From contig DASXED010000126.1 in assembly GCA_036490295.1 (NCBI GenBank), forward strand, positions 1,718 through 65,717: a stretch of DNA of 64,000 bases, read 5' to 3'. Positions 19,764 to 55,200 of the stretch are shown piece after piece. Every line of letters begins with the position of its first letter. The first letter of the stretch is position 1. This DNA comes from Verrucomicrobiia bacterium (lineage in GTDB: Bacteria; Verrucomicrobiota; Verrucomicrobiia; Limisphaerales; UBA11358). The position numbers and the translations under genes are program-made. The notes beneath the pieces are model-generated. The model ran no database searches. It was not told the DNA's origin and was given only the letters and a program-made list of their open reading frames with translations.

Positions 19764-20864
19764 CTAATTTTTCGGCTGTTTCCAGTAAAAGCTCACAACT
19801 TCGACGTCGGTTGGCGAGTTGCGGAAGATGATGGCGACGAACTCGCGCTTGTAATCGCCGACTTGCGCGGTGACGTGGACTTCAAAGGTGCGGCTGTGCA
19901 CGTCGCAGAGACTGCCCAGGCTTGCCCGGGCTTGCGGCGGGACAAGGCCGTTCAACTGGCCGACAGAGCGGAACGGCGTGTCATCGTCGGTTCCATCCAC
20001 GCCGTCGGGCCCGGCGCGTTGCTGGACGATGCTGGCGGCGATCTGGGGATCCACGCCGGGAAGCAGTTGGAGCACGTTGGTGCCGGCGGTGTTGACATTG
20101 ATGCGCCCGGAGGAAATGGGCGTGAAGACATCCTTCAATCCGAACGGATAATCCGGCGGCTGGCCGGGAGAAGTTCCGAAGCCTAGCTTGTGTTGAAAGG
20201 TGGCGGGCGTGTGGTTCGCCGCGCTGCCGCCCCAGTAGATTTCCGGCTGGTCCGAAATTCCCCTGACCAGCAGCAATTCGGACAAGTCGTCAATCGGCGC
20301 GTTCTTGGCGTGATAAGGCGGATTCAATCCCTGATAATAATCGTTCTCCGCGCCGGCAAGGCGGGGCGCATCGTCGGCATCAATCCAGTCTTGGATTGAA
20401 TCGGACACGACGGAAATGTTATCCGCGTCCACACCCATGAGCGTGAGCGCCTGCTGGATTTCCGGCGTGTTGGCGGTGTTGATGTTTGCGAAGCGTTCGA
20501 GGTCAATGATTTTCCAGGAAACCGTGCCGTTTCCAATAGTGTAATTGTCCTGCGAAATTCCGGTCAGCACGCTGTTGCTTTCGCCCATGCTGCATTGCCC
20601 GCTGGCCCAAAACTGATTCAGCGAATCATAAGGCTCGTTTGGAATTGAGGCTGATTGCGCCAGAATCCAGCGTGTCAATTCCACGCCCGAACGGCCGAGC
20701 CAGAGCAATTGCTGGTCGGAATCCGCGTTTTGCGCGAGCTTGGTCTCGACTTTCATCGAATATGCGAAGCCCGCCGCCAGCATGGACAGCACCAAAATCG
20801 CGATCATCGCGATGATGAGCGCGATGCCGTCGCGGGAATTTTGGCGGGTGGAAAATTTCATCAT
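19764..20864 (-). CDS. gspK: Type II secretion minor pseudopilin GspK-like
   Basis: 'RDGIALIIAMIAILVLSMLAAGFAYSM' N-terminus, typical GspK size, C-terminal helix-hairpin-helix-like region. Last gene of the pseudopilin operon. Confidence 0.8.
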   Translation of the reverse strand: MMKFSTRQNSRDGIALIIAMIAILVLSMLAAGFAYSMKVETKLAQNADSDQQLLWLGRSGVELTRWILAQSASIPNEPYDSLNQFWASGQCSMGESNSVLTGISQDNYTIGNGTVSWKIIDLERFANINTANTPEIQQALTLMGVDADNISVVSDSIQDWIDADDAPRLAGAENDYYQGLNPPYHAKNAPIDDLSELLLVRGISDQPEIYWGGSAANHTPATFQHKLGFGTSPGQPPDYPFGLKDVFTPISSGRINVNTAGTNVLQLLPGVDPQIAASIVQQRAGPDGVDGTDDDTPFRSVGQLNGLVPPQARASLGSLCDVHSRTFEVHVTAQVGDYKREFVAIIFRNSPTDVEVVSFYWKQPKN

Positions 20865-21658
20865 TGGCCGGGCAGTTTTATCTGGTTAATCGGGCCACCA
20901 CGGTTCGCCCCCGGCATTTGCACCACTGACGGCAGCGTTTGCGAGGGCATTGAAACCACGCGCGTGACCGTCCGCACCGGGGCGGTGCCGCCAAAACTGT
21001 TGTTGTTGCCGCCGAGCGAAAGGCTGACGCGCACCATTGTCGGAATCGAATTCGTGTCGTCCCATTCATTGTCCCACGCCATTGCGTTCGTGTCCCAGCA
21101 CTCGACGACAAAGCTCTGCACGTTGCGCGCCAGCAGGAGCGGGGTTTGCTGCTCGTCCGCGTCCATGTCCATGAGGATCGGATTCTGGCGCAGCACCAAA
21201 TCTTTTTCCGAATCGGTCCCCGGCTCGACGCTGAACGTGACGCGCCGCACGTTGAAACCGCCGAATTTTCCGTTGCGGAGAAAATCATCCGGCAGCCGCG
21301 CGGTGAAACTTAACGACGGCAGGTCGCCGTTGGTGATGTCGAAAACGTAATACTGCATGGACGCCTGGAACGACTGGATGCACGTCAGCGAATCCTCGAT
21401 GGTGCGGATGGCGACGCGCTGGCGCTGCACCTGCGCGGCGGCTTCCTGCCCGACCCGCGCCGCGCGCATGATCATCAGCCACGTCGAGTAAATCGCCGCC
21501 ATCACGAGGCTGAAAACCGTGATGGCAATCAACACTTCAATCAGCGTGAAGGCGAGTCGTCGAGGGTCGAGGGCCGGGAGCCGAGAGCCGCCGCGCGCAA
21601 CGCGAAATGTTTTCCGCCCTCGACTCTCGGCTCTCGACTTTCGACAAAGAGTTTTCAT
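20861..21658 (-). CDS. Prepilin-type N-terminal methylation-domain protein, GspJ-like
   Basis: 'A|FTLIEVLIAITVFSLVMAAIYS' class III signal motif preceded by a 36-aa Arg-rich leader. The GspJ assignment rests on size and position. Confidence 0.7.
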   Translation of the reverse strand: MKTLCRKSRAESRGRKTFRVARGGSRLPALDPRRLAFTLIEVLIAITVFSLVMAAIYSTWLMIMRAARVGQEAAAQVQRQRVAIRTIEDSLTCIQSFQASMQYYVFDITNGDLPSLSFTARLPDDFLRNGKFGGFNVRRVTFSVEPGTDSEKDLVLRQNPILMDMDADEQQTPLLLARNVQSFVVECWDTNAMAWDNEWDDTNSIPTMVRVSLSLGGNNNSFGGTAPVRTVTRVVSMPSQTLPSVVQMPGANRGGPINQIKLPGQ

Positions 21659-22146
21659 CTTGCCACCGTTGCCCCTTCCAGGCTGCCCGCCGGCGACTGG
21701 GGCCGGTAAAACAAGACGCTCATTTTGGAAATGACGGCGGTATTGCGGTCCACTTCAAAATCCACCTGAAAAAGTTTGTTCGACTGCACTTCCGTGATGT
21801 CGCGCGTCCAGCTGTAGCCGCTGTAGGAATCGCCGAGCAGTTCGCCAAGGTCGCCGGATTCCGTGCCTTCGACGAGTTGATTGGTCAGCGAAAGTTCCGC
21901 CGCCACCAATCCCGCGTCCACCGTGGGACGCTGCAACCGGCGCGCGTTGTCAATGGATTGCGAAACCAGCGCCAGGATGGAAAACGACGCCGTGAAAAAA
22001 ATGACCACGGCGAACATGACTTCGATCAGCGTGAAGGCGCAGGCGCGTCGAGGGTCGAGGGTCGAGGGTCGAGAGAAATTGCGCGCCGCGCGAAATGTTT
22101 TCCGCCTTCGACTCCCGACTCTCGACTTTCGGCAAAGAATTTTCAT
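21655..22146 (-). CDS. Prepilin-type N-terminal methylation-domain protein, GspI-like
   Basis: 'A|FTLIEVMFAVVIFFTA' preceded by a 37-aa Arg-rich leader. Start at the ATG at 22146 (ATGA overlap with the upstream stop). No other in-frame start codon before FTLIE. Confidence 0.7.
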   Translation of the reverse strand: MKILCRKSRVGSRRRKTFRAARNFSRPSTLDPRRACAFTLIEVMFAVVIFFTASFSILALVSQSIDNARRLQRPTVDAGLVAAELSLTNQLVEGTESGDLGELLGDSYSGYSWTRDITEVQSNKLFQVDFEVDRNTAVISKMSVLFYRPQSPAGSLEGATVAR

Positions 22147-22706
22147 TTCATCGGACCGACGGATGCCAGGGCGGTGGTCACTTCGAGCGTGATTTTCCGC
22201 CACTGATCGCCGGAATGAAGCACCAGCGTCATTTCATCGCTCGTGCCGTTCGGAAAAAACCGCACGGGCGGCGCCTCGTCCGCGTCCTTGTATTCCACCA
22301 GATTGATGTCGAGCGCCTCGATGATGATGCTGTCGTCGAACTGCGCCGAATTCACCGGCTTTGAATTAATCCGGGTTGACGGCGCGGACGAATCCACGAC
22401 GCCGCTGAATTCAATCTGATGTGCCTGCGGGTGAAAAACCACCGTGGTCGTCTGGCCGTGCAAAATCGCCTGCGCGCGCGCGTGGCTGCAAATCTCCAGC
22501 GAGTCATTGACCGCCTTGCGCAGCGGTTCTTCTCGAAACGCGCTCAAAATGGATGGAACGCCCATGGCCGCGACGAGGCCGATGATGGCGGCGACCATCA
22601 TGATTTCAATGAGCGTGAAAGCGCTGGCGCGTCGAGGGCAGGAAAAATTTCGCGCGCGTGACTGCGTTCGACCCTCGACTTTCGACTCTCGACTGCTTCG
22701 CATCAT
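22143..22706 (-). CDS. Prepilin-type N-terminal methylation-domain protein, GspH/FimT-like
   Basis: 'A|FTLIEIMMVAAIIGLVAAMGVP' preceded by a 29-aa leader 'MMRSSRESKVEGRTQSRARNFSCPRRAS'. Overlaps the gspF stop. Confidence 0.7.
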   Translation of the reverse strand: MMRSSRESKVEGRTQSRARNFSCPRRASAFTLIEIMMVAAIIGLVAAMGVPSILSAFREEPLRKAVNDSLEICSHARAQAILHGQTTTVVFHPQAHQIEFSGVVDSSAPSTRINSKPVNSAQFDDSIIIEALDINLVEYKDADEAPPVRFFPNGTSDEMTLVLHSGDQWRKITLEVTTALASVGPMK

Positions 22707-23995
22707 TGTCCTCCCGCCGAACTGCCGATGCTCGAAACCATCGAGAACATCGCGCCCAGCACGGCCACCAGCAGGAAGCCGACCATCGCGGCAATGCCGA
22801 CAATCAGGATCGGCTCAATCGTGTTCATCAGCACGCGCAGGGCGATGTTCAATTCGTTTTCATAAGTCTGCGCCACGTTGTTCAGCGCGTCTGGCACGTT
22901 GCCGGTTTCCTCGCCGATTTTCACCAAATCTATCATGAGCCGGGGAAACACCTTGCTCGCCGCCAGCGGCTGCGCGAGCGATTTGCCGTCCGTCACCGCC
23001 TCGCGCGTCTTGGCCGTGGCTTCCTTGATGACGCGGTTGGGAATGACCTGCTCCGTGATTTTCAGCGCGGTGAGCACCGGCACGCCGTTTTGCAGCAGCG
23101 TGCAGAGCGTGCGCGCAAACTGCCCGTAAAGATTCAGGCACATGACCTTTCCAAAAATCGGAGCCTTCATTTTCCACACGTCAATTTTCCGCTTGCCCGT
23201 TTCCGTCGCCTGGAAACGCTTGAACAAAATCACCGCCACGATTGCGACCAGCGCCATCAGCCACCAATAATGCCGGAACGTGTTGCTGATGCCGATCAAC
23301 AGCATCGTCATCGCCGGCAGGTGGGTGAACCCGATGTCGCCGAAGAGCGACATGAATTTCGGCAGGATGAACGTCATGAAAAAAATCACCATGCCGATGC
23401 CCGCGCAAAACACGATGGCCGGATAAACCAGCGCGGATGTGAACTTCGCCTGCACCTGCGCGAATTTGTCAAAGTGATCTGCCATGCGCCGGAGCACGTC
23501 CACCAGCGCGCCGCTCTGCTCGCCCGCGCGCACCATGTTGACATACAAATCCGAAAACACGCGCGGCTGCTTGGCCATCGCGTCGGACAAACTCCTGCCC
23601 TCGGTCACTTCCTGCTTGAGTTCGCGGCTCACGTCCGACGGAATTCCCTTCGTCTCCAGATACGTCATGCTGTTGAGCGCCGTTGACAGCGGCATCCCGG
23701 CCTGGAGCAAATTCGCCAGTTGCTGCGTGAACGTCGCCAGCTCCTGCAACTTCGGCTTGCGCTTCTGCTGCATCTGCGCGCGCAACGTCGGCGGCAGAAA
23801 CGAAGCCAGGCTGAATTTTTGACCGTCGCGTTTTCCGGCGGCGATTGCCGCGCCGCCCTTGCTCGCGTCCACGGCGATTGGAAAAAGCCCGAGGCGCGTG
23901 ATTTGCGCCAGCGCCGCCGGACGGTCGGCCACTTCGAGGACGCCCTCGACCAGTTCGCCGCTGCGCCGGCGCGCTTTGTAGGAAAATTCCGCCAT
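22703..23995 (-). CDS. gspF: Type II secretion / type IV pilus platform protein (GspF/PilC family)
   Basis: 430 aa with duplicated GspF domains ('LATFTQQLANLLQAGMPLSTAL', 'QFARTLCTLLQNGVPVLTAL') and three TM segments. Confidence 0.9.
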   Translation of the reverse strand: MAEFSYKARRRSGELVEGVLEVADRPAALAQITRLGLFPIAVDASKGGAAIAAGKRDGQKFSLASFLPPTLRAQMQQKRKPKLQELATFTQQLANLLQAGMPLSTALNSMTYLETKGIPSDVSRELKQEVTEGRSLSDAMAKQPRVFSDLYVNMVRAGEQSGALVDVLRRMADHFDKFAQVQAKFTSALVYPAIVFCAGIGMVIFFMTFILPKFMSLFGDIGFTHLPAMTMLLIGISNTFRHYWWLMALVAIVAVILFKRFQATETGKRKIDVWKMKAPIFGKVMCLNLYGQFARTLCTLLQNGVPVLTALKITEQVIPNRVIKEATAKTREAVTDGKSLAQPLAASKVFPRLMIDLVKIGEETGNVPDALNNVAQTYENELNIALRVLMNTIEPILIVGIAAMVGFLLVAVLGAMFSMVSSIGSSAGGQ

Positions 23996-24180: not shown

Positions 24181-25413
24181 ATGAAATTCTACACCTTTTG
24201 TCTGCTGGTCGCGCTGACAACTTTTGGTTGGTTGGCCGTTGAAGTCCAAGCGCAAACTTATACGAATTTTACGACGATTGATGAGCCGCTGGCCGAGGCG
24301 GGCAGTCTTTATGGCACTTATGTCGAAGGCATTTCAGGCAATGTCGTCGTCGGCTACTATTACAACAGCCAGGGCCGGCATGGATTTTATCACACGCTCG
24401 GCACGACGAATTACACGACGCTGGACGTTCCGGCCGGCACCAGCAGCACGTCTTTCAGCACCGCCGCTTATGGCATCTCCGGCAATAACATTGTTGGTTG
24501 GTATTCCGCGACCAATTTTACCGGCACTTATGGTTTTATCTACAACATCGGCACGGGCGCTTATGCGACATTGGATGATCCAGCCGGTGTCGAAGAAGGC
24601 GTGAGCAGCACGGAAGCTTATGGCATTGATGGAAACAATGTCGTCGGCTCCGAATCAGACAATAGTCTTCCCGCCGGCAGCGTCTTTGGTTTTTTATGCA
24701 CGCCGGCAGCGGGACAGCCTGGCGTGTATTCTTTTGCCTCGTTTTATATTCCCATTCCCTACCGCATCAATGTCAGCGAGTTCTCCACCACCAATTACAT
24801 CACGCTGCCCTATGGCATTTCCGGCGACAATGTCGTCGGGATGGCCAGAGATACGGATGGCTACTCTCACGGCTTTGCCTACAACCTCAACACGACCAGC
24901 CTCACGTTGCTGACGAATTCAGACGGCGGCTTCCTCTGGCCTTACGGCATTGATGGCAACAATGTGGTCGGCTATTTCTCCGACCCCAATAATGATTACA
25001 ACGACAGCGGTTTTCTTTGCGCCATCGGCTCGACTAATTTGACGACGCTGCGCGATCCTTTGGGTGTTGGCGGCACTTTTGCGCAAGGCATCTCCGGCAA
25101 TGCGATTGTCGGATATTATCGCGACACAAGCGGCGCGCCGCACGGCTTCGTGGTGGGAATGCCGACGGTTTCAATCTCGCCGCCAGTCATCAGCGCGTTC
25201 AGTCTGGCGGGAGAAGAATACACTTTGAGCGGAACCAACGGCGTGCCGGGCGCGCCTTATGCAATTCTGGCCACGACCAACGTCGCGCTGCCGTTGAATG
25301 AATGGACGATCGTGGATACCAATTCCTTTGATGGCAACGGCGCTTTCACTTTTTCCAGCGCGGTTGATCCAGCCGCGCCACAGATGTTTTACCGGTTGCA
25401 AGAATCGCAATAG
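24181..25413 (+). CDS. Secreted repeat protein (HAF-like extracellular repeats)
   Basis: Signal peptide, then about 8 repeats of the pattern 'A/P-YGISGNN-VVG-Y...-HGF-Y'. Start placed at MKFYTF (ATG at 24181). Confidence 0.6.
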   Translation: MKFYTFCLLVALTTFGWLAVEVQAQTYTNFTTIDEPLAEAGSLYGTYVEGISGNVVVGYYYNSQGRHGFYHTLGTTNYTTLDVPAGTSSTSFSTAAYGISGNNIVGWYSATNFTGTYGFIYNIGTGAYATLDDPAGVEEGVSSTEAYGIDGNNVVGSESDNSLPAGSVFGFLCTPAAGQPGVYSFASFYIPIPYRINVSEFSTTNYITLPYGISGDNVVGMARDTDGYSHGFAYNLNTTSLTLLTNSDGGFLWPYGIDGNNVVGYFSDPNNDYNDSGFLCAIGSTNLTTLRDPLGVGGTFAQGISGNAIVGYYRDTSGAPHGFVVGMPTVSISPPVISAFSLAGEEYTLSGTNGVPGAPYAILATTNVALPLNEWTIVDTNSFDGNGAFTFSSAVDPAAPQMFYRLQESQ

Positions 25414-25485
25414 GCGGCGCTCTTAAAAATGAAAATGCGAATCGTGCTTGACGCGGGCGGCGATTTTGATTGCACTGTGTCCATT

Positions 25486-25881
25486 ATGAAAACGAAAATT
25501 TTTGCGGCGTTTGCCGGGATTGCCATTGTCACCGCCGGTTGCGTCAGCACCGTGAGCGGGACGCACACGGCGGCTGTGCCGTTTGAAAAGGACAGCGTGT
25601 CTGGCCGTTATGAGCGGACGGTGGATCAGGTTTATCAGGCTTCGGTGCAGGTCGTTCAAAACAATGGCGTGGTCATCACGGAATTCATTCCGCACGACAC
25701 GACGAACAGCGTGCGCTCGCTGCTCGGCAAGGTGAACCAGGGCAAAGTCTGGGTGCGCGTCGAGGCGGTGGATCCGAAAATCACGCAGGTCACCGTCCAG
25801 GCCCGCACGCAACATGGCGGCAGCAACCTGGATGTCGCGCACCAGTTGGAGAAGGAAATCGCGCTACAACTGGCGCGGTGA
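25486..25881 (+). CDS. Small lipoprotein, function unknown
   Basis: Lipobox 'VTAGC' after 'MKTKIFAAFAGIAI'. 131 aa. Confidence 0.6.
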   Translation: MKTKIFAAFAGIAIVTAGCVSTVSGTHTAAVPFEKDSVSGRYERTVDQVYQASVQVVQNNGVVITEFIPHDTTNSVRSLLGKVNQGKVWVRVEAVDPKITQVTVQARTQHGGSNLDVAHQLEKEIALQLAR

Positions 25882-25890
25882 TTTCGCCCC

Positions 25891-26949
25891 TCATCTTTGC
25901 GGAATGATCCTGTCCGGATGCCGCGCGCGGCTGACCGCCGTGTCGTAGCTGATCTGGCATTTGCAATACAGGTCGTAAAGGCAATTGTCCATCAGCAGCA
26001 TTCCCTCCTTGCGCCCGGTCTGAATCGTGTTTTCCAAATGGTGAAGCTGGTTTTCCCGAATCTGGTTGCGGACGGCTCCGTTGGCGATCAGCAATTCATA
26101 GGCGAGAATCCGGCGCGACCTGTCCGCCGCCGGCAGCAAATCCTGCGAGATGATTCCCTGAAGCGCGTTGGCAAGTTGTAAAATAATCTGCCGCTGCGCG
26201 TTGCCGTCAAAAACGCCGATGATGCGCTCGACTGCGTGCGAGACGTTCGGCGAGTGCATCGTGGCGAGAACCAGATGGCCGGTTTCCGCCGCCGTCAACG
26301 CCGTGGAAATCGCCTCGTGATCGCGCATCTCGCCCACGACAATCACGTCGGGGTCCTGCCGCAAAACGTGGATGAGAGCGCGGTTGAACGAACGCACGTC
26401 CGTTAAAACTTCCTGCTGCACGACGATGGCGCGCTTGTTTTGGTGGACGAATTCAATCGGGTCTTCAATCGTGACGATTTTGCAGCGGCGCTCGCTGTTG
26501 ACGAGGTCAACGAGATAATTGAGCGTCGTGGTCTTGCCCGCGCCGGTCGGGCCGGTGATGAGGACGAGTCCATTCGGCTTGCGCGCGAGTTCCTCGATTT
26601 TTTTGGGAAGGCCAAGCTCGTCGCGCGTGGCGATTTTGTCGCCGCAAAAGCGGAAGCTCATTTCAGGATGCCCGTTGCGGCGGTAAAAAGTCATGCGGAC
26701 GCGCCCGGCCGCGCTGTGCAGCAGCGAAATGCAAAGCTCCCAATCCTGCTCGAATTTTTTCCTCTGCTGTTCGTTCAACAGGCTGTCCGTCATGGCCGTG
26801 ATGTCCTCGATGGTCAATGCGTCCTCATCCGCGATGATGATTTCTCCGTTGACGCGAAACGCGGGCGGAACGCCGGTCACGAGATGAAGGTCGGAGGCGT
26901 CAAAGTCATTGACGGCGGATAAAAGGCGGTCCAAAAGCGGCGTGCTCAT
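25891..26949 (-). CDS. PilT/PilU-family hexameric ATPase (352 aa)
   Basis: 'ASDLHLVTGVPPAFRVNG', Walker A 'GPTGAGKTT', 'IVTIEDPIEF', 'ALRQDPDVIVVGEMRD', 'TGHLVLATMHS'. Start at MSTPLLDRL (ATG at 26949; ATGA overlap with the TPR gene). The 445-aa track ORF is an N-terminal over-extension. Confidence 0.9.
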   Translation of the reverse strand: MSTPLLDRLLSAVNDFDASDLHLVTGVPPAFRVNGEIIIADEDALTIEDITAMTDSLLNEQQRKKFEQDWELCISLLHSAAGRVRMTFYRRNGHPEMSFRFCGDKIATRDELGLPKKIEELARKPNGLVLITGPTGAGKTTTLNYLVDLVNSERRCKIVTIEDPIEFVHQNKRAIVVQQEVLTDVRSFNRALIHVLRQDPDVIVVGEMRDHEAISTALTAAETGHLVLATMHSPNVSHAVERIIGVFDGNAQRQIILQLANALQGIISQDLLPAADRSRRILAYELLIANGAVRNQIRENQLHHLENTIQTGRKEGMLLMDNCLYDLYCKCQISYDTAVSRARHPDRIIPQR

Positions 26950-27725
26950 CGTTTGAAAAGTTGCCGCAACCAGTCGCGCGTGCGCGGCCAGAACCCGGCT
27001 TGGGAAAGCCGGACGAGCGCGAGGTCGGCTTCGCGGCAATTCCGGTTCAACTGCAACGCCTGTGTGAAAGAGGTCTCGGCGACGCTGACCAAACCGAGTG
27101 CCTGCTGGCATTGGCCGAGTTCGAGCCACAGCAGAAAATGGCCGGCGTTCCATTCGACGGCTTGTTGCAGCAATTTCAGCGCGAGCACAAATTGACTGTA
27201 ATAAAAACGGATGCGCGACGCCAGCCATGCCGTGAACCAGTCTTTTGGCGCGAGCAGCAGCGCTTTCTCAAAACAATAATCTGCGCGATGCTCTTTGCGC
27301 GCGAGCATCACGTCGCCGCGCGCGAGCCAGACGTAGGGCGTGTCGCCGCGCTCTTCAATCGAGGCGTCGGAAAATGCCAGCGCGCCCTGCAAGTCGCCGC
27401 TGCGCGCGAGGGCGACGGCTTTGGCGGCGAGCAATTCGGGATATTGCGGAAAGCGTTCCAGCGCCTTGTCCGCCCACAATTTTGCCTCGCGGAATTCTCC
27501 GAGTTCGACCAGCATCCGCACCTGCGCCGTCCACGCGGCGGCATTTTGCGGATTGTATTCCAGGACTTTCGAGTAAAAACGCAGCGCCTGCTCAAAGTCG
27601 CCGTTCTCAAACGCCGCGCGCGCCTCGCCGAAATAATAAGCCTCGTCCTTGGCCGGCAGTTTTTGTTCCTGCTGCCACTGGTCTTCGGACTCGCCGCCCA
27701 ATTCAAGATTTCCAAAACGGCTCAT
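26946..27725 (-). CDS. TPR-repeat protein
   Basis: Several TPR-like units ('AYYFGEARAAFENGDFEQALRFYSKVLEYNPQNAAAW...'). Start at MSRFGNLELGG (ATG at 27725; ATGA overlap with the upstream stop). Confidence 0.8.
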   Translation of the reverse strand: MSRFGNLELGGESEDQWQQEQKLPAKDEAYYFGEARAAFENGDFEQALRFYSKVLEYNPQNAAAWTAQVRMLVELGEFREAKLWADKALERFPQYPELLAAKAVALARSGDLQGALAFSDASIEERGDTPYVWLARGDVMLARKEHRADYCFEKALLLAPKDWFTAWLASRIRFYYSQFVLALKLLQQAVEWNAGHFLLWLELGQCQQALGLVSVAETSFTQALQLNRNCREADLALVRLSQAGFWPRTRDWLRQLFKR

Positions 27726-28609
27726 GGTAAAATTTGTTGCCGCCAGAACCAGTGTTTGAACGGTTTGCCGACAAATTGTTTTTCCGGAACATTTGCCATT
27801 TGCAGCATGGCGGATGAAATGTCCGCTTCGCCCACGTTCCAATTACCGCTTATGGCAATATTTGGCCAGATGAACCAGTGATTTTCCGGCACAAGCCAAT
27901 TTCCCGATGTCGGCATGTGCGGCAGAAGCGGCTGCGGAACGCCGTTCACGGTGAAACTATTCGTCGAAAATTCCACGCGGTCGCCGGCCATTGCCAGCAC
28001 CGGACCCAAGCCCAAACTGGTCCGGTTCAAAACGCCATTGCCTCTGTGGTTTGAAAAATAATATCCTGAAAGCCTGTAAGCGACCCGGTCGCCGCGTTTG
28101 ATGTCATGAGCCGGAACGAATTTTTCAACGATGACTGCATGGCCGTTCACGCGCAGAGGCAGCAGCCAGTGTGTCCGCAGCGGCGTATAAAGGAACAAGC
28201 CCAAAACCAACATCGCTCCGATTGTAAAAAGAATGCGGGATTGAAATGGTTCATGGTTCAGCCACGGGCTGCAATAATAAACCAGGCCGGTGACATGAAT
28301 CGAAAGCAAAAGTCCGAACGCGTAATTGCCAACTGGATAGCCGAGCCAGACAATGAAGCAAAGGAAAAGCAGCGCGCACGCGGCCAGCGCGGCCTTTCCG
28401 TAAAGTCGCGGGCCGCGAAGATAAACCGCAAGGCCGGGAACCAAAACGCCTCCGACGAGTCCGCCGACCGTGATTTCATTTGGAAGACGAATGCGATCCA
28501 GCGCAAGCCCGTGGCGCACCGCAGAGCCAAGATAAAAAATGCGGGCATACCATCGCGCGCGACGCGGATAGTAGGGCGAAGTCATTTTTTCGCTGGAGTT
28601 CAACGCCAT
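27722..28609 (-). CDS. Polytopic membrane protein with a C-terminal signal-peptidase-I-like (S26/S24 fold) domain, copy 1
   Basis: Four or five TM helices, then 'IKRGDRVAY...GPVLAMAGDRVEF..FTVNGVP...VPENHWFIWPN...VPEKQFVGKPF'. This follows the S26 sequence pattern, but I see no SM/K catalytic dyad. Confidence 0.5.
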   Translation of the reverse strand: MALNSSEKMTSPYYPRRARWYARIFYLGSAVRHGLALDRIRLPNEITVGGLVGGVLVPGLAVYLRGPRLYGKAALAACALLFLCFIVWLGYPVGNYAFGLLLSIHVTGLVYYCSPWLNHEPFQSRILFTIGAMLVLGLFLYTPLRTHWLLPLRVNGHAVIVEKFVPAHDIKRGDRVAYRLSGYYFSNHRGNGVLNRTSLGLGPVLAMAGDRVEFSTNSFTVNGVPQPLLPHMPTSGNWLVPENHWFIWPNIAISGNWNVGEADISSAMLQMANVPEKQFVGKPFKHWFWRQQILP

Positions 28610-28659
28610 TGGTCAATGTTGTAATGCGCCGCCAATCCAAGATTTCCAAAACGGTTCAT
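28600..28659 (-). pseudogene. Chimeric duplication-junction ORF (TPR-gene 5' end fused to DUF2997-gene 3' end)
   Basis: Translates to MNRFGNLGLAAHYNIDQWR*. The first 7 codons match the TPR start MSRFGNLELGG (27725 downward). The last codons match the end of the DUF2997 gene '..RYNIDQRH*' (29548-29588). The ATGA overlap with the upstream stop is retained. Confidence 0.65.
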
Positions 28660-29501
28660 GGTAAAATTTGTTTCCGAAAAAACCATCGTTTGAACGGGCG
28701 TCCGACAAATTCCTCGCGCGACACAATCGTCGGCACAATCGTCATTTGCTGGGTGACATCGCCTTGGGTTGCAAAGATTCCAAACGTTGCAAAGATTCCA
28801 AACCCTTCATGTCTATAATATCTGGAAAACTGCGCCCGCATGAGCCAGTGCTTTTCCGGCACGTCCACGGAATCCACATGGTCGCCGCCAAGCCCGATCA
28901 CGGGACCGAGAATAAACCCGGCATCCTTCACTTCATGGCCGCCGAAGCTGGCGGAACTTCTAAACGCCGCCCAATCGCCGAGCTTGAGCGAATCCGGCGT
29001 TGTCCTGACTGAAACAACTATCACGCGATCGCCCACGCGCAACGGCATCAGCCAGTGATTTTGAATTGTGCCGCGCAGTGGCGTGTAAATTGCCAGACCC
29101 AAAATCAGCATCGTTCCGACGGTAAAAAGAATCCGGTAACGAAACGGCTCATGGTTCAGCCACGGGCTGCAATAATAAACCAGACCCGTGGTGTGAATCG
29201 AAAGCATCAGGCCGAACGCAAGGTTCGCGGCGGGATAACCGAGCCATACGATGAAAATGGTCAACAGCAGCGCGCAACCGGCCATCGCCATCTTTCCCCA
29301 AAGTCGCGGCCCGCGAAGATAAACCGCCAGGCCGGGAATCAAAATGCCGCCAATAAGCCCGCCGATGGTAATTTCTTTTGGCAAACAAATGCGATCCAGC
29401 GCGAGCCGGTGGCGCACCGCGAGTCCCAAATAAAAAACGCGGCAATACCATCGCGCGCGGCGCGGATAGTAAGGCGAGTTAAATTTTTCGCTGGAGTTCA
29501 A
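28656..29501 (-). CDS. Polytopic membrane protein with a degenerate S26-like C-terminal domain, copy 2 (tandem paralog)
   Basis: The N-terminal roughly 150 aa are almost colinear with copy 1 ('SPYYPRRARWY..FYLG.AVRH.LALDRI.LP.EIT.GGL.GG.L.PGLAVYLRGPRL'). The C-terminal domain has diverged. The apparent start is TTG at 29501. Confidence 0.5.
   Translation of the reverse strand: MNSSEKFNSPYYPRRARWYCRVFYLGLAVRHRLALDRICLPKEITIGGLIGGILIPGLAVYLRGPRLWGKMAMAGCALLLTIFIVWLGYPAANLAFGLMLSIHTTGLVYYCSPWLNHEPFRYRILFTVGTMLILGLAIYTPLRGTIQNHWLMPLRVGDRVIVVSVRTTPDSLKLGDWAAFRSSASFGGHEVKDAGFILGPVIGLGGDHVDSVDVPEKHWLMRAQFSRYYRHEGFGIFATFGIFATQGDVTQQMTIVPTIVSREEFVGRPFKRWFFRKQILP
28768..28803. repeat. Perfect 18-bp tandem duplication inside paralog copy 2
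   Basis: GTTGCAAAGATTCCAAAC x2 (28768-28785 and 28786-28803). It is in frame and gives 'FGIFATFGIFAT'. Confidence 0.9.
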
Positions 29502-29547
29502 GCTTCAGCCTGTTTGTTTCGGACAAGCTGAAGCTTGGACTCCGGCT

Positions 29548-29748
29548 TCAATGCCGCTGGTCAATGTTGTAACGCACCACTTCTTCCGGCTCATAAAATT
29601 CGCCCGTCTTCTGTTCTGATTTCAGTTCGCCGACGATCTGCTCGAACATTTTCATCGCTTCGAGGCAGCCCTTGCCTTTGTAGCCCTTGACGTGCAACTC
29701 CACGCTGCCGTCCTTGCCGATGGTGATGTCAAATTCGCGCTGGGGCAT
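29548..29748 (-). CDS. DUF2997-like small protein (66 aa)
   Basis: 'MPQREFDITIGKDGSVELHVKGYKGKGCLEAMKMFEQIVGELKSEQKTGEFYEPEE' matches my recollection of the DUF2997 pattern (I-x-x-DG-x-V-x-x-x-V-x-G-x-x-G-x-x-C ... T-x-E-Y). Confidence 0.55.
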   Translation of the reverse strand: MPQREFDITIGKDGSVELHVKGYKGKGCLEAMKMFEQIVGELKSEQKTGEFYEPEEVVRYNIDQRH

Positions 29749-29910
29749 AAAATTAGTTTTGAAAACTGATCTCTGGATAATGTTTGGATAAAAAGTGGCG
29801 GCATGAACTGCGATTACCCGGACAAATATGCTTCGAAAGCTGGCGCGCGTGTTCAACAAAATCCGCTGGCGACGCGCCAGCCTTGATGAGGCGAGAAATG
29901 CAAGTAGGCA

Positions 29911-30312
29911 TCATGGCTTGGCCTTTTGTAAAACCATGTCCTTATCTATACCATCCCACCTCACAACCAAATCATCATTGTTCAAACTAACAATGCGCCC
30001 ATGCAAGCCGTGCGCCATCAATGTCGCGTTTGTCCGGCTGTCGTTTGTAACCGTGATAATCAAATCTCCATCTTTGGCCAGCAATGTCCCTTCTTCTTTG
30101 ACCGTAATGCCATTCGTGAGGCCGGTAATCTCGAAATCGAAGTTGCCGGATGGACTCACAGCTCTCGTGCTTCGGAAACTGTCGCCCTTCTCAACCCATG
30201 TCCCTGTCAATTGCCGCTGAATCTTTGCATCGCTGCGACCGCATCCCGTCAATAGCAAACCCAAGAATATAAATATGAAACAGTTGAATGTTGAATGTTC
30301 GATGTTTTGCAT
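29911..30312 (-). CDS. Lipoprotein, function unknown (133 aa)
   Basis: Lipobox 'LLLTGCG'. The gene is more AT-rich than its neighbours and lies 4 nt downstream of the DUF1257-like stop. Confidence 0.6.
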   Translation of the reverse strand: MQNIEHSTFNCFIFIFLGLLLTGCGRSDAKIQRQLTGTWVEKGDSFRSTRAVSPSGNFDFEITGLTNGITVKEEGTLLAKDGDLIITVTNDSRTNATLMAHGLHGRIVSLNNDDLVVRWDGIDKDMVLQKAKP

Positions 30313-30316
30313 AATT

Positions 30317-30790
30317 TCAATTCTCCCAATGCCGGACTTTCAACCGTATCGAACGGTCTTGATTTGTTTCTTCCTCGACGACGTTGAATCCTTTTGCCCG
30401 CATCTCATCCATCAGCTTTTGATAAACATATTTTTGGACGACGCACTGGCTCATTTCCTCGCCCATCGCTCGCAACTCATCATTGCTGTGGCCGTTGCCC
30501 GTCACGCAGAGCGCCGCCTTGCCGCGCGCGTCGCGCGAAAACGTGATGGTCACGCCGTCGCGCGTCACGGCAATGCGCTGTTCGCGGCCAAGCTGGTTCG
30601 TGACGACCTCGCTGTTCTCGATTTCAAGCTGAACCTTGTTGGAACTTTTCTCCGCAACCGCATTTTTGGTCAGATCAGCGGCTTCAGTGGCAATTTGATA
30701 GCCGAGCGACGCCGATGCCGCCACTACCGCCGCGCTGAAGGCCGGCCACGCCGCGATCACCACCGGAGTCAATATGCAGACACAGCTCAT
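30317..30790 (-). CDS. DUF1257 (Ycf35)-like protein with an added N-terminal hydrophobic segment
   Basis: The C-terminus 'VVQKYVYQKLMDEMRAKGFNVVEEETNQDRSIRLKVRHWE' resembles the DUF1257 C-terminal signature. The N-terminus 'MSCVCILTPVVIAAWPAFSAAVVAASASL' is hydrophobic. ATGA overlap with the upstream gene. Confidence 0.5.
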   Translation of the reverse strand: MSCVCILTPVVIAAWPAFSAAVVAASASLGYQIATEAADLTKNAVAEKSSNKVQLEIENSEVVTNQLGREQRIAVTRDGVTITFSRDARGKAALCVTGNGHSNDELRAMGEEMSQCVVQKYVYQKLMDEMRAKGFNVVEEETNQDRSIRLKVRHWEN

Positions 30791-31101
30791 CTTTTGCTTT
30801 TGTTCACCAGTTTTGACCGGGCTTTGCGGATTTCGTCACGCGACATTTCCTGCCGCTGGAATTTGTTCCTGCGCCGCGCCCGCGTCTTGCGGATTGCCCG
30901 CCAAACCAGCGCAATGATGAGAATGCCAACTCCCGGCAGCACCTGTAGAAAATATGCCTGGATATTGGAATCGTCGATCATTCCACAAACGCCCGCCACC
31001 AAAACGATCAAAATGAGCGAGGCAAAAAATGTGGCGAAAAAAAGAAACGCGTAACGGCGGTCTTTGAAACTGTCATACAAATTGCTCCAGATTGAATTCA
31101 T
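30787..31101 (-). CDS. Small two-TM membrane protein with a basic C-terminal tail
   Basis: 'YAFLFFATFFASLILIVLVAGV' and 'VLPGVGILIIALVW' helices, then 'RKTRARRRNKFQRQEMSRDEIRKARSKL'. The ATG at 31101 is preferred over the TTG at 31116. Confidence 0.5.
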   Translation of the reverse strand: MNSIWSNLYDSFKDRRYAFLFFATFFASLILIVLVAGVCGMIDDSNIQAYFLQVLPGVGILIIALVWRAIRKTRARRRNKFQRQEMSRDEIRKARSKLVNKSKR

Positions 31102-31112
31102 CGGGTATTCAG

Positions 31113-32678
31113 TCAAAATTCCATCCGCCGCACGGTGTCGCCTTTCTTGGCGTCGCGCGCCACACTGGCGTTGCGCGCGCGGCCTTCGGCCCAGCTTCGC
31201 AGCCGGTTGATTTGTTCGTCCATCGTTTTGGCCAGCGGCACGGTTTGCGACAATGCCGTTTTCACATCGTCCATCGTCATTTCCTGCTTGGCGTAAAAAG
31301 CGTCGTAAAGCGCGCTGTTGATCGCCTCCTCGATTTCCGCGCCGCTGAATTCCGCGCTGCCATTCGCCAAAGTTTCCAAATCAAACTTCGTCGCGTCGCG
31401 CTTGCGCTTCGTGATGTGAATCCGAAAAATTTCCTTCCGCTCTTCGGGACTCGGCAAATCCACGAAGAAAATTTCGTCCAATCGTCCTTTGCGCAGCAAT
31501 TCCGGCGGCAGTTGCGAAATGTCATTCGCCGTCGCCACGACAAAAACCGGCGCGGTTTTTTCCGAAAGCCACGTCAGAAAAGTTCCGAACACGCGCGCCG
31601 TCGTGCCGCCGTCCGTCGAGCCGGAGCCTTGCGAACCCGCGAACGCCTTGTCAATTTCGTCCACCCACAAAATCGCGGGCGCGACCGATTCCGCCACCGC
31701 AATCGCACGGCGCACATTTTCTTCCGACGAACCGACCAGGCTGCCGAACATCCGCCCCATGTCGAACCGCAGCAGCGGCAATTGCCACAAGTTTGAAACC
31801 GCCTTCGCGCACAAACTTTTTCCGCAGCCTTGCACGCCGAGCATCAAAATTCCTTTCGGAAACGGCAGGCCGAACGCGCGCGCCTCGTTCGTGAACGCGA
31901 TGGAACGTTTGCCCAGCCAGTCTTTCAGCACGCTCATGCCGCCGACATTCGTGAAGCTTTCATCCGTCGCGTAATACTCCAGCAGGCCGCTTTTGCGGAT
32001 GATCTGCTGTTTCTCGGCAAAAACGTCGTTCACGTCCTCGGCGCTCAACCGCTCATCCTTCACGATGATTTTTGCGAAAACATTTTCCGCCTCGCCGAGC
32101 GTCAGGCCGAGCGCGGCTTGCAGCAACCGTTCGCGCCCCGCGTCGTCCAATTCGATTTTCACCTGATGAAACTGCTTCACGTCAGCGATGATTTTGTCGA
32201 GCAACACGGCGAGGTCGTCGCGCGACGGCAGCGGATGATTGAGCAGCGTGATTTCCTTTTCCAATTCCGTCGGGATTTCCATCACGGGCGAGACCAGCAC
32301 GATGGTCTTGAAACTGTTCTTCAAGTGCAGCGCGATCTCCTTGAGCTTGCGCGTCACGGCAAAATTATTTTTCGTCAGGAACGGGTGAAAATCCTTGAAA
32401 ATGAAAATCGCCGGCTCGACCTGCTCGATGACCTGATCCAGCGCCATCAACGGGTCTTTCGTCGCCGCGTTGCGATGCTTTTGCGACTGGATGGAAGTCC
32501 CCGCCGGCACGATGCCCGTGCTGTAACTCCACTCAAAAACTTTTTTCTGGCGCTTCTGCGCGATCTCGACGATCAGGCTTTGGACGCGCGACTCCTCGCT
32601 GCTCAAAATGTAAAGGATCGGATAGCGCGCGCGGATGAGCGTTTCGAGTTCGGTTTGGAAATTTACGATTGTTTGCAT
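31113..32678 (-). CDS. AAA+ ATPase, Ycf46-like (single AAA module with a long N-terminal domain)
   Basis: Walker A '[14 protein letters not shown]', Walker B '[11 protein letters not shown]', '[29 protein letters not shown]'. The N-terminus '[13 protein letters not shown]' is typical of the Ycf46 group. Confidence 0.9.
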
Positions 32679-32863
32679 ATTTTTTGACCCGAGTTTCGCC
32701 GGCTGCCAATTCCTGCGCGCTGGCGCATCAATTTATCCTCTGGATTCAATTCCGACAACAATTTGGCCATCGTCGGCGTGATATTTTGCGCGAGGATTCT
32801 GCCGTCTGGCAAAATAAGCAATTCGGACAAACCGATTTCAGCCTCACGATGTTTGTTTTTCAT
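32663..32863 (-). CDS. Hypothetical small protein (66 aa)
   Basis: ORF only. It fills the gap between the 318-aa gene and the AAA+ gene and overlaps both (by 20 nt and 16 nt). Confidence 0.35.
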   Translation of the reverse strand: MKNKHREAEIGLSELLILPDGRILAQNITPTMAKLLSELNPEDKLMRQRAGIGSRRNSGQKICKQS

Positions 32864-33800
32864 ACTTTATTCCCAAGCTCTTATTTTTGGCCTCAACTTC
32901 TTCTTCGGTCATCCAAGCCAAGCCTGCATAAGTAGGATGTCCGCTGTAAGGGAGATTAAGGCGATACCGCGTGTCGGTAATGCGCGTTTTCTTCGTTAGT
33001 TCCGGCACAAATGAAAAGTTTTGCAAAGGATGAACAGCCTGAATCTTGGCCTCAACTGTATAACTTACGGTGCACTTGGCTTCGCCCCCTACCGGCCAGT
33101 TGGGGCCAAACACCGTTAATTTGAAACCACTTGGCATACGCATTTTGGAAAAACTGATCCAATCTGTCGTTTCAAAATTGGCATGAAGAAAACCAGCATC
33201 AAATGGCGGCGGATATTTTTTCAGCCGACTACCACCTTCGTTCACATGGAGATATATGCCTTCGGAATGCCAGGCTATTTCGCTGATGAAATTTGAGTCA
33301 TTTAGTTTCCATTTGGCGGGCAAAGACAACGTCGTCGGAACGGCATCGAGAAAAGAATTAATTATGATAAACAGTGGAGCGGCGATTCGATTGTCCTTCC
33401 GAGAAAGAAAGTAGCTGGACGAGCAATAGGCAATCCAGAGCGGATAGATAAAATCTAAATTCAAACCCACGAGCGCATTGCCATGTCGCACTCGGCCTTG
33501 AGCAGTGAGAATGTCTTTAACATTGGAAAATTCCGGGTTGTTTTCGTCAAAACTTTTTAGTTCATAAATTGTCGCTCCATCACAGCCCATCTCATCATAT
33601 TTAATGCCATTTGCAACCTCATCCTCATGGAGATTTGTCGTCCGAATTTTCCACTGCTGTCCTTTTCTGGCGACGACGAAGTGTCTTGAATGTTTAACCT
33701 GTTCTGTCCCGAACTGGCTGCGACATTCAGTCAAATAAACAATGTTCCCTTCCATTTGGAACTCTGGCTCGTAGCCGTTGGTTTGATTTGGAATTTTCAT
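32844..33800 (-). CDS. Hypothetical protein (318 aa), no recognisable domain
   Basis: Long ORF in a visibly AT-richer segment. ATGA overlap with the radical SAM stop. No signal peptide or TM helix obvious. Confidence 0.6.
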   Translation of the reverse strand: MKIPNQTNGYEPEFQMEGNIVYLTECRSQFGTEQVKHSRHFVVARKGQQWKIRTTNLHEDEVANGIKYDEMGCDGATIYELKSFDENNPEFSNVKDILTAQGRVRHGNALVGLNLDFIYPLWIAYCSSSYFLSRKDNRIAAPLFIIINSFLDAVPTTLSLPAKWKLNDSNFISEIAWHSEGIYLHVNEGGSRLKKYPPPFDAGFLHANFETTDWISFSKMRMPSGFKLTVFGPNWPVGGEAKCTVSYTVEAKIQAVHPLQNFSFVPELTKKTRITDTRYRLNLPYSGHPTYAGLAWMTEEEVEAKNKSLGIKYEKQTS

Positions 33801-34666
33801 TCAATTAAATTTAGTCCGCATTCTTTGGCAATCTCGTTGGCGCGTTCCGTTTCGGCTCTCGAAATCGGGCTTGATAATTCTTTATGCCGCCGCGCATGCC
33901 GCGCCGGCCAGAAACCGGAGCGCAAGTTCACTTTGACGCCGGGCAGATTTTCCGCGATCCATTCCGCAACCGGCCTCCAGCAGCAATCAATGTGTCTAGG
34001 CATGAGCAGATGGCGCACAATCAATTCGCTGTGCTCGTTCGCCCAAAGTAGATTTTCCTGAACGACGCGGACGTAATCTGAAATTTTCGCCAGCCGCCGC
34101 GCGCAATCGTCGTTGCCGAATTTGAAATCCGCCAGCCAGACATCGAACATTCCGTCGAGCAATTCGCGCGCCTGCGCCGAGCCGTGCGCGTTCGTTTTCC
34201 AAATCAAGCGCGCCGAGTCCGGCAATTCGGCGACCAATTCCAGCGCGGCGGGCAGATGAATCGTCGGCTCGCCGCCGAGAACCATGATTGTCCGCGCGCC
34301 GTTCCGCAAAGCCGCTCTTGCTTTCGCCGCCATTTCATTTGCATCGAAATTTTCACCGGCGCGCGGATTCCAGCTTTCCGCGCCGGTGATGCAAAAATCG
34401 CAGCGCAAATCGCATCCGCTCAACGCGATTGCAAACGTCGGGATCAATTCCAGTTCGTCCGAGACTTCCAATTGCGCGGAAAAAAATCGCGGCGCGGCTC
34501 CGGCGCGGCACAGGCCAAATTCTCCCGCGAGCCGGTTGACGCCGCAATCGTGCGCACAAAACCGGCAGTCGGCCAGCATCGCGCGCGCAATCGCCGCGCG
34601 TTCCCGCGCGATGGAAGCGCGGGTCAAAATCTTCGCCTCCGGTTGAATTGTTTCAGCGCAAATCAT
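33797..34666 (-). CDS. Radical SAM enzyme, PflX/activase-like (COG1313-type)
   Basis: CX3CX2C 'CDLRCDFC', an additional N-terminal Cys cluster 'CRFCAHDCGVNRLAGEFGLC', 'WLADFKFGNDDCA', 'LIVRHLLMP'. Confidence 0.8.
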   Translation of the reverse strand: MICAETIQPEAKILTRASIARERAAIARAMLADCRFCAHDCGVNRLAGEFGLCRAGAAPRFFSAQLEVSDELELIPTFAIALSGCDLRCDFCITGAESWNPRAGENFDANEMAAKARAALRNGARTIMVLGGEPTIHLPAALELVAELPDSARLIWKTNAHGSAQARELLDGMFDVWLADFKFGNDDCARRLAKISDYVRVVQENLLWANEHSELIVRHLLMPRHIDCCWRPVAEWIAENLPGVKVNLRSGFWPARHARRHKELSSPISRAETERANEIAKECGLNLIE

Positions 34667-34687
34667 TTCTAAATAAATGGTGGTGTC

Positions 34688-34804
34688 TTAATTTGAAAAC
34701 GAGCGTGCCAACAAATTCAGGTAATGCCCTTTTATGCAAAAGCTGGCGAGAACCAGTATGGCAATCAGCAGCCAAATCAAAATTTTCCATTTTTGGACCG
34801 TCAT
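34688..34804 (-). CDS. Possible 38-aa single-TM peptide (below the ORF-track cutoff)
   Basis: My own translation gives MTVQKWKILIWLLIAILVLASFCIKGHYLNLLARSFSN*. Its ATG is 12 nt after the preceding stop. Confidence 0.3.
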   Translation of the reverse strand: MTVQKWKILIWLLIAILVLASFCIKGHYLNLLARSFSN

Positions 34805-34816
34805 ATCGAAATAAAT

Positions 34817-55006: not shown

Positions 55007-55200
55007 GCCAGTGACCAACAGAGGCATAATTAAATGCTCAAACCGGCTTCCGAACACGATTGTGATTGTAAGCCGGGCGGCAAATTACTGGTTAAAATTT
55101 CATCGTGATTCAAGCGATTGTTTTTCAAAAATTGCCCGGCGATTCGTGTGACGCGAAACGGGAACGCACGTCCGTGCTGGATCGTGGCTTTCGGAAGGTG

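Follow-up and report, generated by a model that had tools for sequence, protein, structure and literature searches.

Ycf46 and Ycf35 (DUF1257) are conserved "hypothetical chloroplast frames" whose role is unexplained despite stress phenotypes in cyanobacteria. The present analysis concerns a 64,000-nucleotide stretch of DNA (hereafter the window; contig DASXED010000126.1 of assembly GCA_036490295.1, positions 1,718 to 65,717) from a metagenome-assembled genome (MAG) of a verrucomicrobial bacterium (Verrucomicrobiae in the NCBI record), in which genes for a Ycf46-type AAA+ ATPase, a DUF1257 protein and a DUF2997 protein, together termed the triad, lie close to one another on the minus strand. 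An earlier note, made from the letters and open reading frames (ORFs) of this stretch, had proposed that the triad here stands in a non-photosynthetic context, works at the membrane and may be the core of a larger array.

In cyanobacteria, ycf46 is part of a published three-gene stress operon, slr0373-slr0374(ycf46)-slr0376, also described as Synpcc7942_0416-0418, the transcription of which is stress-induced. DUF2997 is encoded elsewhere in cyanobacteria, together with ycf35 and fed7 (PMC4284462), and canonical DUF1257 proteins carry an invariant N-terminal MSHF motif (PMC13060386). The triad and the ycf46 operon are already known as conserved genes of unexplained function, such that the new part is the array described below, shared within the Planctomycetes-Verrucomicrobia-Chlamydiae (PVC) superphylum, and the long form of DUF1257 that it encodes. 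The literature found on DUF1257 and DUF2997 includes no study on PVC bacteria, and neither the long DUF1257 form nor the PVC array was found described in it.

The Triad and Its Families

The minus strand of the window holds five closely spaced ORFs between positions 29548 and 32678, all at the coordinates first read from the sequence. In the NCBI record (locus tags VGH42_10400-10435) three of them carry family names: AAA family ATPase, DUF1257 domain-containing and DUF2997 domain-containing. The features of this segment, with lengths in amino acids (aa) and transmembrane segments abbreviated TM, are as follows:

31113..32678, minus strand: Ycf46-family AAA+ ATPase, 521 aa (PF00004, E=2.3e-27, at aa 277-407; AAA_lid_3)
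30787..31101 (NCBI start; longest ORF from 31116), minus strand: 2-TM protein with a Lys/Arg-rich C-terminal tail, 104/109 aa (hydrophobic windows at aa 23-41 and 54-72)
30317..30790, minus strand: long-form DUF1257 protein, 157 aa (PF06868, E=3e-7)
29911..30312, minus strand: lipoprotein-like gene, 133 aa (hydrophobic leader with LTGC at its end)
29865..29881, minus strand: terminator-like GC-rich hairpin followed by a T-run, directly 3′ of the lipoprotein-like gene
29548..29748, minus strand: DUF2997 protein, 66 aa (PF11211, 8.7e-14)

The ATPase has intact Walker A (GVQGCGKS) and Walker B (ILWVDE) motifs, Arg fingers and an RKGRLDE sequence, all within a single C-terminal AAA module of the classic clade that follows a family-specific N-domain of about 250 aa. 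In tblastn searches with one genome per species, residues 10-521 were 48-51% identical to cyanobacterial proteins, with full-length matches in Nostoc, Microcystis, Thermosynechococcus, Leptolyngbya, Pseudanabaena and others. In each matched cyanobacterium the homologous gene has a 110-135-aa ribbon-helix-helix (RHH)/zinc-ribbon gene on its 5′ side and a 116-aa DUF1257 gene on its 3′ side. Taking the Ycf46 identity of these matches from the structure of the published three-gene operon, the window protein can be assigned to the Ycf46 type on its full-length homology to the AAA gene of the RHH-AAA-DUF1257 operon. A search of 1.8 billion cluster representatives placed 5394 clusters in the ATPase family at E<1e-30, with members of about 500 aa, and all 150 of the 150 best representatives aligned across almost the entire length of the protein. 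Assignment to FtsH, Cdc48 or PAN was rejected, the scores lying far under the curated cutoffs (CDC48, 99 bits vs 803; FtsH, 97 vs 600; PAN, 97 vs 500), and the nearest relative of known structure in the PDB, p97/Cdc48 D2 (1e-51), matches over the AAA module only.

In an hhalign comparison (E=0.001, probability 21%) the N-terminal 250 residues of the ATPase (window 31929-32678), which have no Walker A motif, were weakly but collinearly alignable with the AAA module of the same protein, in its lid and in the strands of Walker B and sensor-1. Tentatively, the N-domain of Ycf46-type ATPases may represent a degenerate first AAA domain.

The DUF2997 protein scores 51.6 bits against a gathering cutoff of 24.1 and carries both the single conserved Cys of the family, kept in all aligned sequences, and the T-x-E-[FY]-Y motif; its cluster at 90% identity has 43 members. 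A relationship of DUF2997 to the VRGYxG hairpin of canonical DUF1257 was considered and rejected as not significant (hhalign E=0.013, probability 3%). For the 157-aa protein, PF06868 gave 31.1 bits against a gathering cutoff of 22.2 with the match confined to profile positions 60-102, while a hidden Markov model (HMM) built from non-PVC DUF1257 proteins only matched at E=1.3e-8 and profile-profile comparison with canonical DUF1257 (hhalign) returned probabilities of 96-98%. The three family assignments, which the earlier note had made from motif-level resemblance, are therefore regarded as secure.

The distribution of the triad was followed in 164 loci, of which 84 were fetched via the ATPase and 80 via a metagenome scan with the long DUF1257. 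In 51 of the 84 ATPase-fetched loci the ATPase gene has a same-strand DUF1257 gene no more than a few kb away, immediately 3′ in the cyanobacterial ones, and DUF2997 is also present in 25 of the 84 but near the ATPase in none of the cyanobacterial loci. Contiguous triads were found in Myxococcota, KSB1, one Hodarchaeota MAG, Planctomycetota and Verrucomicrobiota. With this distribution, a non-photosynthetic setting such as that of the window is normal for the triad rather than unusual, and it is the cyanobacterial arrangement that is the split one.

Variants of the arrangement were seen outside the PVC bacteria. A KSB1 MAG (L050:3350-9621) encodes a tandem series of three Ycf46-like AAA paralogs (614-628 aa), the DUF1257 and DUF2997 genes lying after the first of them and before the second, while in the Hodarchaeota (Asgard) MAG (L057:929-5106) the order DUF1257-DUF2997-AAA is followed by genes whose N-termini, judged by eye, are Mre11- and Rad50-like. 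In an Anaeromyxobacter locus (L031:6268-6933) a gene for a zinc-ribbon protein lies between the AAA and DUF1257 genes.

A Conserved Array in Verrucomicrobiota and Planctomycetota

The triad of the window is embedded in a longer run of genes on the same strand, the remaining members of which are, from 5′ to 3′:

35041..35751, minus strand: extracytoplasmic function (ECF)-type sigma-70 factor (Sigma70_r2 7e-15, Sigma70_r4_2 3e-10; TIGR02937 above cutoff)
34817..35044, minus strand: conserved 75-aa protein, 3′ of the sigma gene, without TM segment or Pfam match
33797..34666, minus strand: radical SAM enzyme of the activase-like group (PflA/NrdG/QueE/AmmeMemoRadiSam; PF04055 2.5e-12, Fer4_12 1.7e-7)
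32844..33800, minus strand: 318-aa protein without family match, between the radical SAM gene and the p66 gene
32663..32863, minus strand: p66, conserved 66-aa protein, adjoining and overlapping the AAA gene upstream (core motif sELLiLPDGRIL..N.TP..A.lL)
28656..29501, minus strand: polytopic membrane protein with a putatively inactive S26 domain, paralog A (divergent copy; deletion and GIFATFGIFAT repeat)
27722..28609, minus strand: polytopic membrane protein with a putatively inactive S26 domain, paralog B (conserved copy; Peptidase_S26 1.2e-4)
26946..27728, minus strand: cytoplasmic tetratricopeptide repeat (TPR) protein (TPR families, 1e-12 to 1e-19), its position kept in PVC loci
25891..26946, minus strand: PilT/PilU-family hexameric ATPase, the final gene of the array (TIGR01420, 379.9 bits vs cutoff 319.1)

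Verrucomicrobiota and Planctomycetota share the order radical SAM, p66, AAA+, long DUF1257, DUF2997, S26-like membrane protein, TPR and PilT, the planctomycete carriers being Gimesia, Pirellula, Phycisphaerae and Planctomycetales, while the ECF sigma factor and the 75-aa protein upstream are a verrucomicrobial addition. In the 80 metagenome loci the order is the same in every sufficiently long contig, 15 of which hold the whole array from sigma to PilT. The array genes are co-directional and closely packed, with starts and stops that overlap or lie a few nt apart and some gaps of 46-162 nt. This conservation of order across two phyla bears out the proposal of a larger array with the triad at its core.

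In five verrucomicrobial lineages (L009, L013, L014, L019 and L011) the radical SAM, p66, DUF1257, DUF2997 and S26-like genes are jointly missing. All five keep the ATPase, four of them the sigma pair (not detected in L011) and three of them TPR and/or PilT. It is this joint presence and joint loss that forms the main argument for the array genes working together.

The Long Form of DUF1257

Canonical DUF1257 proteins are soluble, have about 105-135 aa and start MSHFSTLRTKI. The window protein departs from these hallmarks, having 157 aa, the start MSCVCILTP and a hydrophobic N-terminus, and the form has 152-158 aa across PVC loci. A hydrophobic segment (aa 1-33, MSCVCILTPVVIAAWPAFSAAVVAASASLGYQ) comes first and is joined to the DUF1257 domain by a linker that varies in sequence and length. 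The hydrophobic segment is the most conserved stretch of the protein, with P9, W15, P16, A24 and G30 invariant in Verrucomicrobiota and Planctomycetota, and the Kyte-Doolittle mean of aa 4-22 (2.02) matches that of the TM segments of the adjacent membrane proteins.

The long form was seen only where the gene for the S26-like polytopic protein is present, which holds for every PVC locus with enough flank, and among the fetched loci the S26-like gene was found in no locus with a canonical DUF1257. On either of the readings of the segment weighed below, it marks a new, conserved and PVC-specific hydrophobic interface.

The 2-TM Gene, the Lipoprotein Gene and the Insertion Slot

The earlier note had placed weight on a 2-TM protein translationally coupled between the ATPase and DUF1257 and on a lipoprotein gene between DUF1257 and DUF2997. 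The TGA stop of the AAA gene overlaps a TTG or lies 12 nt ahead of the ATG used by NCBI, and the stop of the 2-TM gene overlaps the start of DUF1257 as ATGA. The 2-TM gene occupies this position in 56 of 59 related metagenome loci, and both the N-terminal M-[ND]-[SP]-F-W motif and the LSRDE.RKARSKL tail are conserved; among the fetched loci it is present neither in Planctomycetes nor in the verrucomicrobial L008, L010 and L012. The overlapping junctions and the basic tail thus stand, but the gene is limited to one verrucomicrobial clade, indicating a clade-specific accessory rather than a general feature of the triad.

The lipoprotein-like gene has a homolog in none of the 164 loci and its product falls in a cluster of four members at 90% identity; paralogs of array genes were likewise not found elsewhere in the window. 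In 41 of 67 loci the DUF1257-DUF2997 junction is abutting (-13 to +4 nt); in 24 of the 67 it is interrupted, by inserts that are mutually unrelated (window 29749-30316; loci L086-L160). These include a 47-48-aa pilin-like ORF, an 83-aa family, an 85-94-aa family and proteins of 236-249 aa, as well as, in L128 and L135, AhpC/thioredoxin-like proteins of 265-274 aa. The lack of homologs and the variability of the slot suggest that the lipoprotein gene, which does exist as described, is a strain-specific passenger with little bearing on how the triad works.

The 47-48-aa ORF has a pilin-type N-terminal hydrophobic helix (..SWTLTELLCVMAIISILAA..) and was seen in at least 11 loci, the closest genome among them (L005:6021-6161; L114:2784-2927; L110:1797-1940; L100:626-769; L117:1198-1341; also L091, L093, L097, L098, L088 and L157), with none in the window. 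Its score with Pfam N_methyl is 19.5, under the cutoff of 21.2.

Other Proteins of the Array

The sigma factor is the first gene of the array and has the same position in all long verrucomicrobial loci. Its start is probably downstream of the listed TTG since homologs are 186-200 aa in length. The 75-aa protein that follows it carries the motif EF.s.eELLR.DA.qT.VP, conserved in 13 genome loci, and its position after the sigma gene suggests an anti-sigma role.

The radical SAM enzyme has a CxxxCxxC motif and an N-terminal CxxCxxxC...C motif, gives weak matches only with NCBIfam and is encoded upstream of the AAA gene in both Verrucomicrobia and Planctomycetes. p66 is left unannotated by NCBI and is present in JGI and Logan gene calls, with its motif common to Verrucomicrobia and Planctomycetes. 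The 318-aa protein encoded between these two genes gave no match in Pfam, NCBIfam or PADLOC and has homologs in L005 and L128 only among the 164 loci, the gene being a lineage-specific insertion.

A profile of the S26-like family matched the solved structures of SpsB from Staphylococcus (1.1e-8), SipA (1.3e-7) and LepA (5e-7). Neither residue of the Ser/Lys dyad is conserved at the positions aligned with it, and GPV(L/I)AxxGD stands in place of the KRVIGxPGD sequence, while a His within a TM segment is invariant; the proteins are on this basis predicted to be catalytically inactive. Paralog A of the window is degenerate, with about 28 domain residues missing in addition to its tandem repeat. 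Tandem S26-like duplicates were also seen in L090, L105, L124 and L125. The planctomycete S26-like proteins (L015, L016, L017, L018 and L021) have an N-terminal zinc ribbon, MQCPSCxFxNMPG..C.RC. For DUF1257, DUF2997 and the radical SAM enzyme, sequence searches of the PDB returned no relative of known structure, and Foldseek against the PDB gave nothing usable.

Proposed Mechanism and Alternative Explanations

The PVC version of the widespread Ycf46 module is here regarded as a membrane-associated AAA+ remodeller encoded within one array, an account that is plausible, if a little short of probable. The ATPase would act as a hexameric protein remodeller or unfoldase, with DUF1257 and DUF2997 as its adaptor, regulator or dedicated substrate. 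The invariant hydrophobic N-terminus that DUF1257 has in PVC bacteria would dock in or on the membrane beside the S26-like protein and so bring the ATPase to bear on membrane or envelope proteins at the cytoplasmic membrane, with the 2-TM protein helping to locate it where present. The array would be under ECF-sigma control of the envelope-stress type, paralleling the stress induction of the cyanobacterial operon, and the activase-like radical SAM enzyme might modify one of the small proteins, of which the long DUF1257 has a Cys95 that does not vary in PVC and DUF2997 a conserved Cys. A possible redox thread would run from the ferredoxin beside DUF2997/Ycf35 in cyanobacteria through the thioredoxin-like proteins inserted at two verrucomicrobial loci to the Fe-S radical SAM enzyme here, and is suggestive only. 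That the whole constitutes a membrane machine of nine to eleven genes, in which the triad is joined by an inactive S26 platform, a radical SAM modifier, a TPR adaptor, a PilT motor and ECF sigma control, is rather doubtful. If true, this would be a case of two different hexameric ATPases working together at the membrane, and a first mechanistic entry would be gained to ycf46/ycf35 function, unexplained since the first plastid genomes.

Several observations weigh against the membrane-associated remodeller. Pore loop 1 of the ATPase family is L-V-G, without the usual aromatic residue, so that threading is not certain. Many phyla have the ATPase without DUF1257 or DUF2997 nearby and some Verrucomicrobia have lost both, indicating that the small proteins are not obligatory subunits. 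Conserved synteny inside one superphylum could partly stem from inheritance rather than function. Two AlphaFold models of the long DUF1257 (pLDDT 68.6 and 71.9; 43 and 72 sequences) contain no TM helix, with helix 15-29 instead packing onto the DUF1257 domain at a pLDDT of about 80, and the hydrophobic segment has two invariant prolines and no flanking Lys or Arg residues, which is atypical of a signal anchor.

These last points bear directly on an alternative in which the triad is soluble and cytoplasmic, the N-terminus of the long DUF1257 being the canonical strand-helix-strand turned apolar by burial in an interface with itself as an oligomer, with p66 or with DUF2997. Both models show a strand, the helix and a strand on the domain at pLDDT 76-86, the second model having eight strands and two helices in all, and local hhalign pairs AAVVAASASLGYQI of the segment with canonical helix 1 (e.Lk.aL.dLgy.f), a pairing with which global hhalign disagrees. 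The long form also retains the N-terminal Met-Ser of the family, and in Anaeromyxobacter, DUF1257 proteins whose length is normal begin with a partly hydrophobic stretch in the same layout. The AlphaFold runs, however, represent no membrane and used shallow alignments. Moreover, when the protein was compared segment by segment, residues 47-78 (KVQLEIENSEVVTNQLG...) fitted the canonical N-terminus better (E=0.003) than residues 1-40 (E=0.28), in agreement with the Pfam register, which requires no large indel. The variable linker after the segment resembles a tether, and a polytopic membrane partner accompanies the segment in every full PVC locus. The soluble triad is unlikely, though it deserves serious consideration, and the hydrophobic N-terminus is slightly more likely than not an added anchor plus tether. 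The description of this DUF1257 as membrane-anchored is softened to a possible anchoring: the segment is conserved and as hydrophobic as its TM neighbors, while the missing spanning helix and basic flanks count against a membrane anchor.

The remaining alternatives concern the array as a whole. One is that unrelated operons, two or three in number (sigma plus the small protein; radical SAM plus the triad; S26-like plus TPR and PilT), have been inherited side by side with no joint function, the triad on its own having the role that Ycf46 has in other organisms. This would be in keeping with those Verrucomicrobia that have sigma-AAA-TPR-PilT without the small proteins, showing that the parts are separable, with triads outside PVC that lack every other array gene and with the intergenic gaps and the hairpin at 29881-29865, which permit internal transcription units. 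It is nonetheless judged fairly unlikely given order and orientation that are the same in two phyla and all long contigs, several overlapping junctions and the identical distributions of the long DUF1257 and the S26-like gene. More improbable still is a role of the array as an auxiliary to type IV pilus or type II secretion-like machinery, in which PilT, the TPR protein and the S26-like protein would handle pilin-like proteins and the triad would serve their quality control or membrane extraction. A bona fide PilT-family ATPase closes the array in both phyla, the S26-like relatives SipA and LepA are inactive signal-peptidase homologs required for streptococcal pilus assembly, the pilin-like ORF recurs at the DUF1257-DUF2997 junction, and type II secretion system (T2SS)-like genes lie in the window at 19764-23995, 2-6 kb downstream of PilT past two plus-strand genes (GspF, 22703-23995; pseudopilin with N_methyl motif, 20861-21658; GspK, 19764-20864). 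Yet the mini-pilin ORF is under the N_methyl cutoff and missing from the window and most loci, the other loci inspected, including L001 and L003, have no T2SS genes next to the array, proximity is weak evidence because pilin-like genes are very numerous in PVC genomes, and the conserved block has no PilB, PilC, PilM or secretin gene. Lastly, an anti-phage defense system related to IetAS, with a slot for changing effectors, was proposed by the matches of the ATPase to PADLOC IetA models (1e-23) and NCBIfam IteA (1.6e-19) and by the variable gene slot within the operon. The matches are limited to the generic AAA module (IteA, 70 bits against a curated cutoff of 510), the IetS protease is not present and no other array protein has a convincing PADLOC match, while an ATPase 85-92% identical over more than 100 verrucomicrobial clusters, in fixed synteny, is housekeeping-like. 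The defense reading was rejected as very improbable.

Boundaries of the Array and Flanking Sequences

A terminator-like hairpin lies 3′ of the PilT gene at 25877-25860. In a scan for promoters and terminators the overall counts were at chance level, and hairpins are cited singly. A further GC-rich hairpin at 36155-36176 (9 bp, 8 of them GC), with T-runs on both strands, is found 404 nt upstream of the listed sigma start at 35751 and sits within a 226-aa ORF of the UPF0102 family (35660-36340); it may act as a bidirectional terminator at the upstream boundary of the array. Rfam gave no match over 25000-36500. Elsewhere in the window there are two very large ORFs, one of 1237 aa (36202-39915), rich in Thr, Ser and Asn and resembling a secreted repeat protein, and one of 2380 aa (55105-62247).

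Comparison With Known Systems

The strong conservation of the module in non-photosynthetic Verrucomicrobia and Planctomycetes means that its core function cannot be photosynthesis-specific, and caution is needed when DUF1257 or ycf genes are used as photosynthesis markers in metagenome or metatranscriptome studies. The PVC array also supplies candidate partners, namely a membrane pseudo-peptidase, a radical SAM enzyme and PilT, that are testable in cultivable planctomycetes such as Gimesia.

With p97/Cdc48, FtsH and PAN the window ATPase shares the layout of Walker A, Walker B and Arg fingers in the AAA module, but its N-region is unrelated in sequence, it has neither a protease domain nor a TM segment, and its pore loop 1 is LVG. 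The S26-like proteins resemble SipA and LepA of the streptococcal pilus loci in having an S26 fold without the Ser/Lys dyad, from which they differ by three to four N-terminal TM segments, the invariant His, the zinc ribbon in planctomycetes and a setting without the context of a sortase pilus.

The triads of Myxococcota, KSB1 and Hodarchaeota comprise the same three families, adjacent and co-directional; the AAA gene comes first in Myxococcota and KSB1 (AAA-DUF1257-DUF2997) and last in Hodarchaeota (DUF1257-DUF2997-AAA). Here, in contrast to the PVC array, DUF1257 is of the canonical short form and the neighbors are DUF4157-like and pentapeptide genes, Mre11/Rad50-like genes or three tandem AAA paralogs. 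In the cyanobacterial ycf46 operon, DUF1257 is a soluble protein of 116 aa with an MSHF start, the upstream gene encodes an RHH/zinc-ribbon protein rather than an ECF sigma factor, DUF2997 is encoded elsewhere with Ycf35 and the ferredoxin Fed7 (PMC4284462), and radical SAM, S26-like, TPR and PilT genes are absent. Common to this operon and the array of the window are an ATPase homologous over its full length, a DUF1257 gene on its 3′ side, directly so in the cyanobacterial operon, and a regulator gene upstream.

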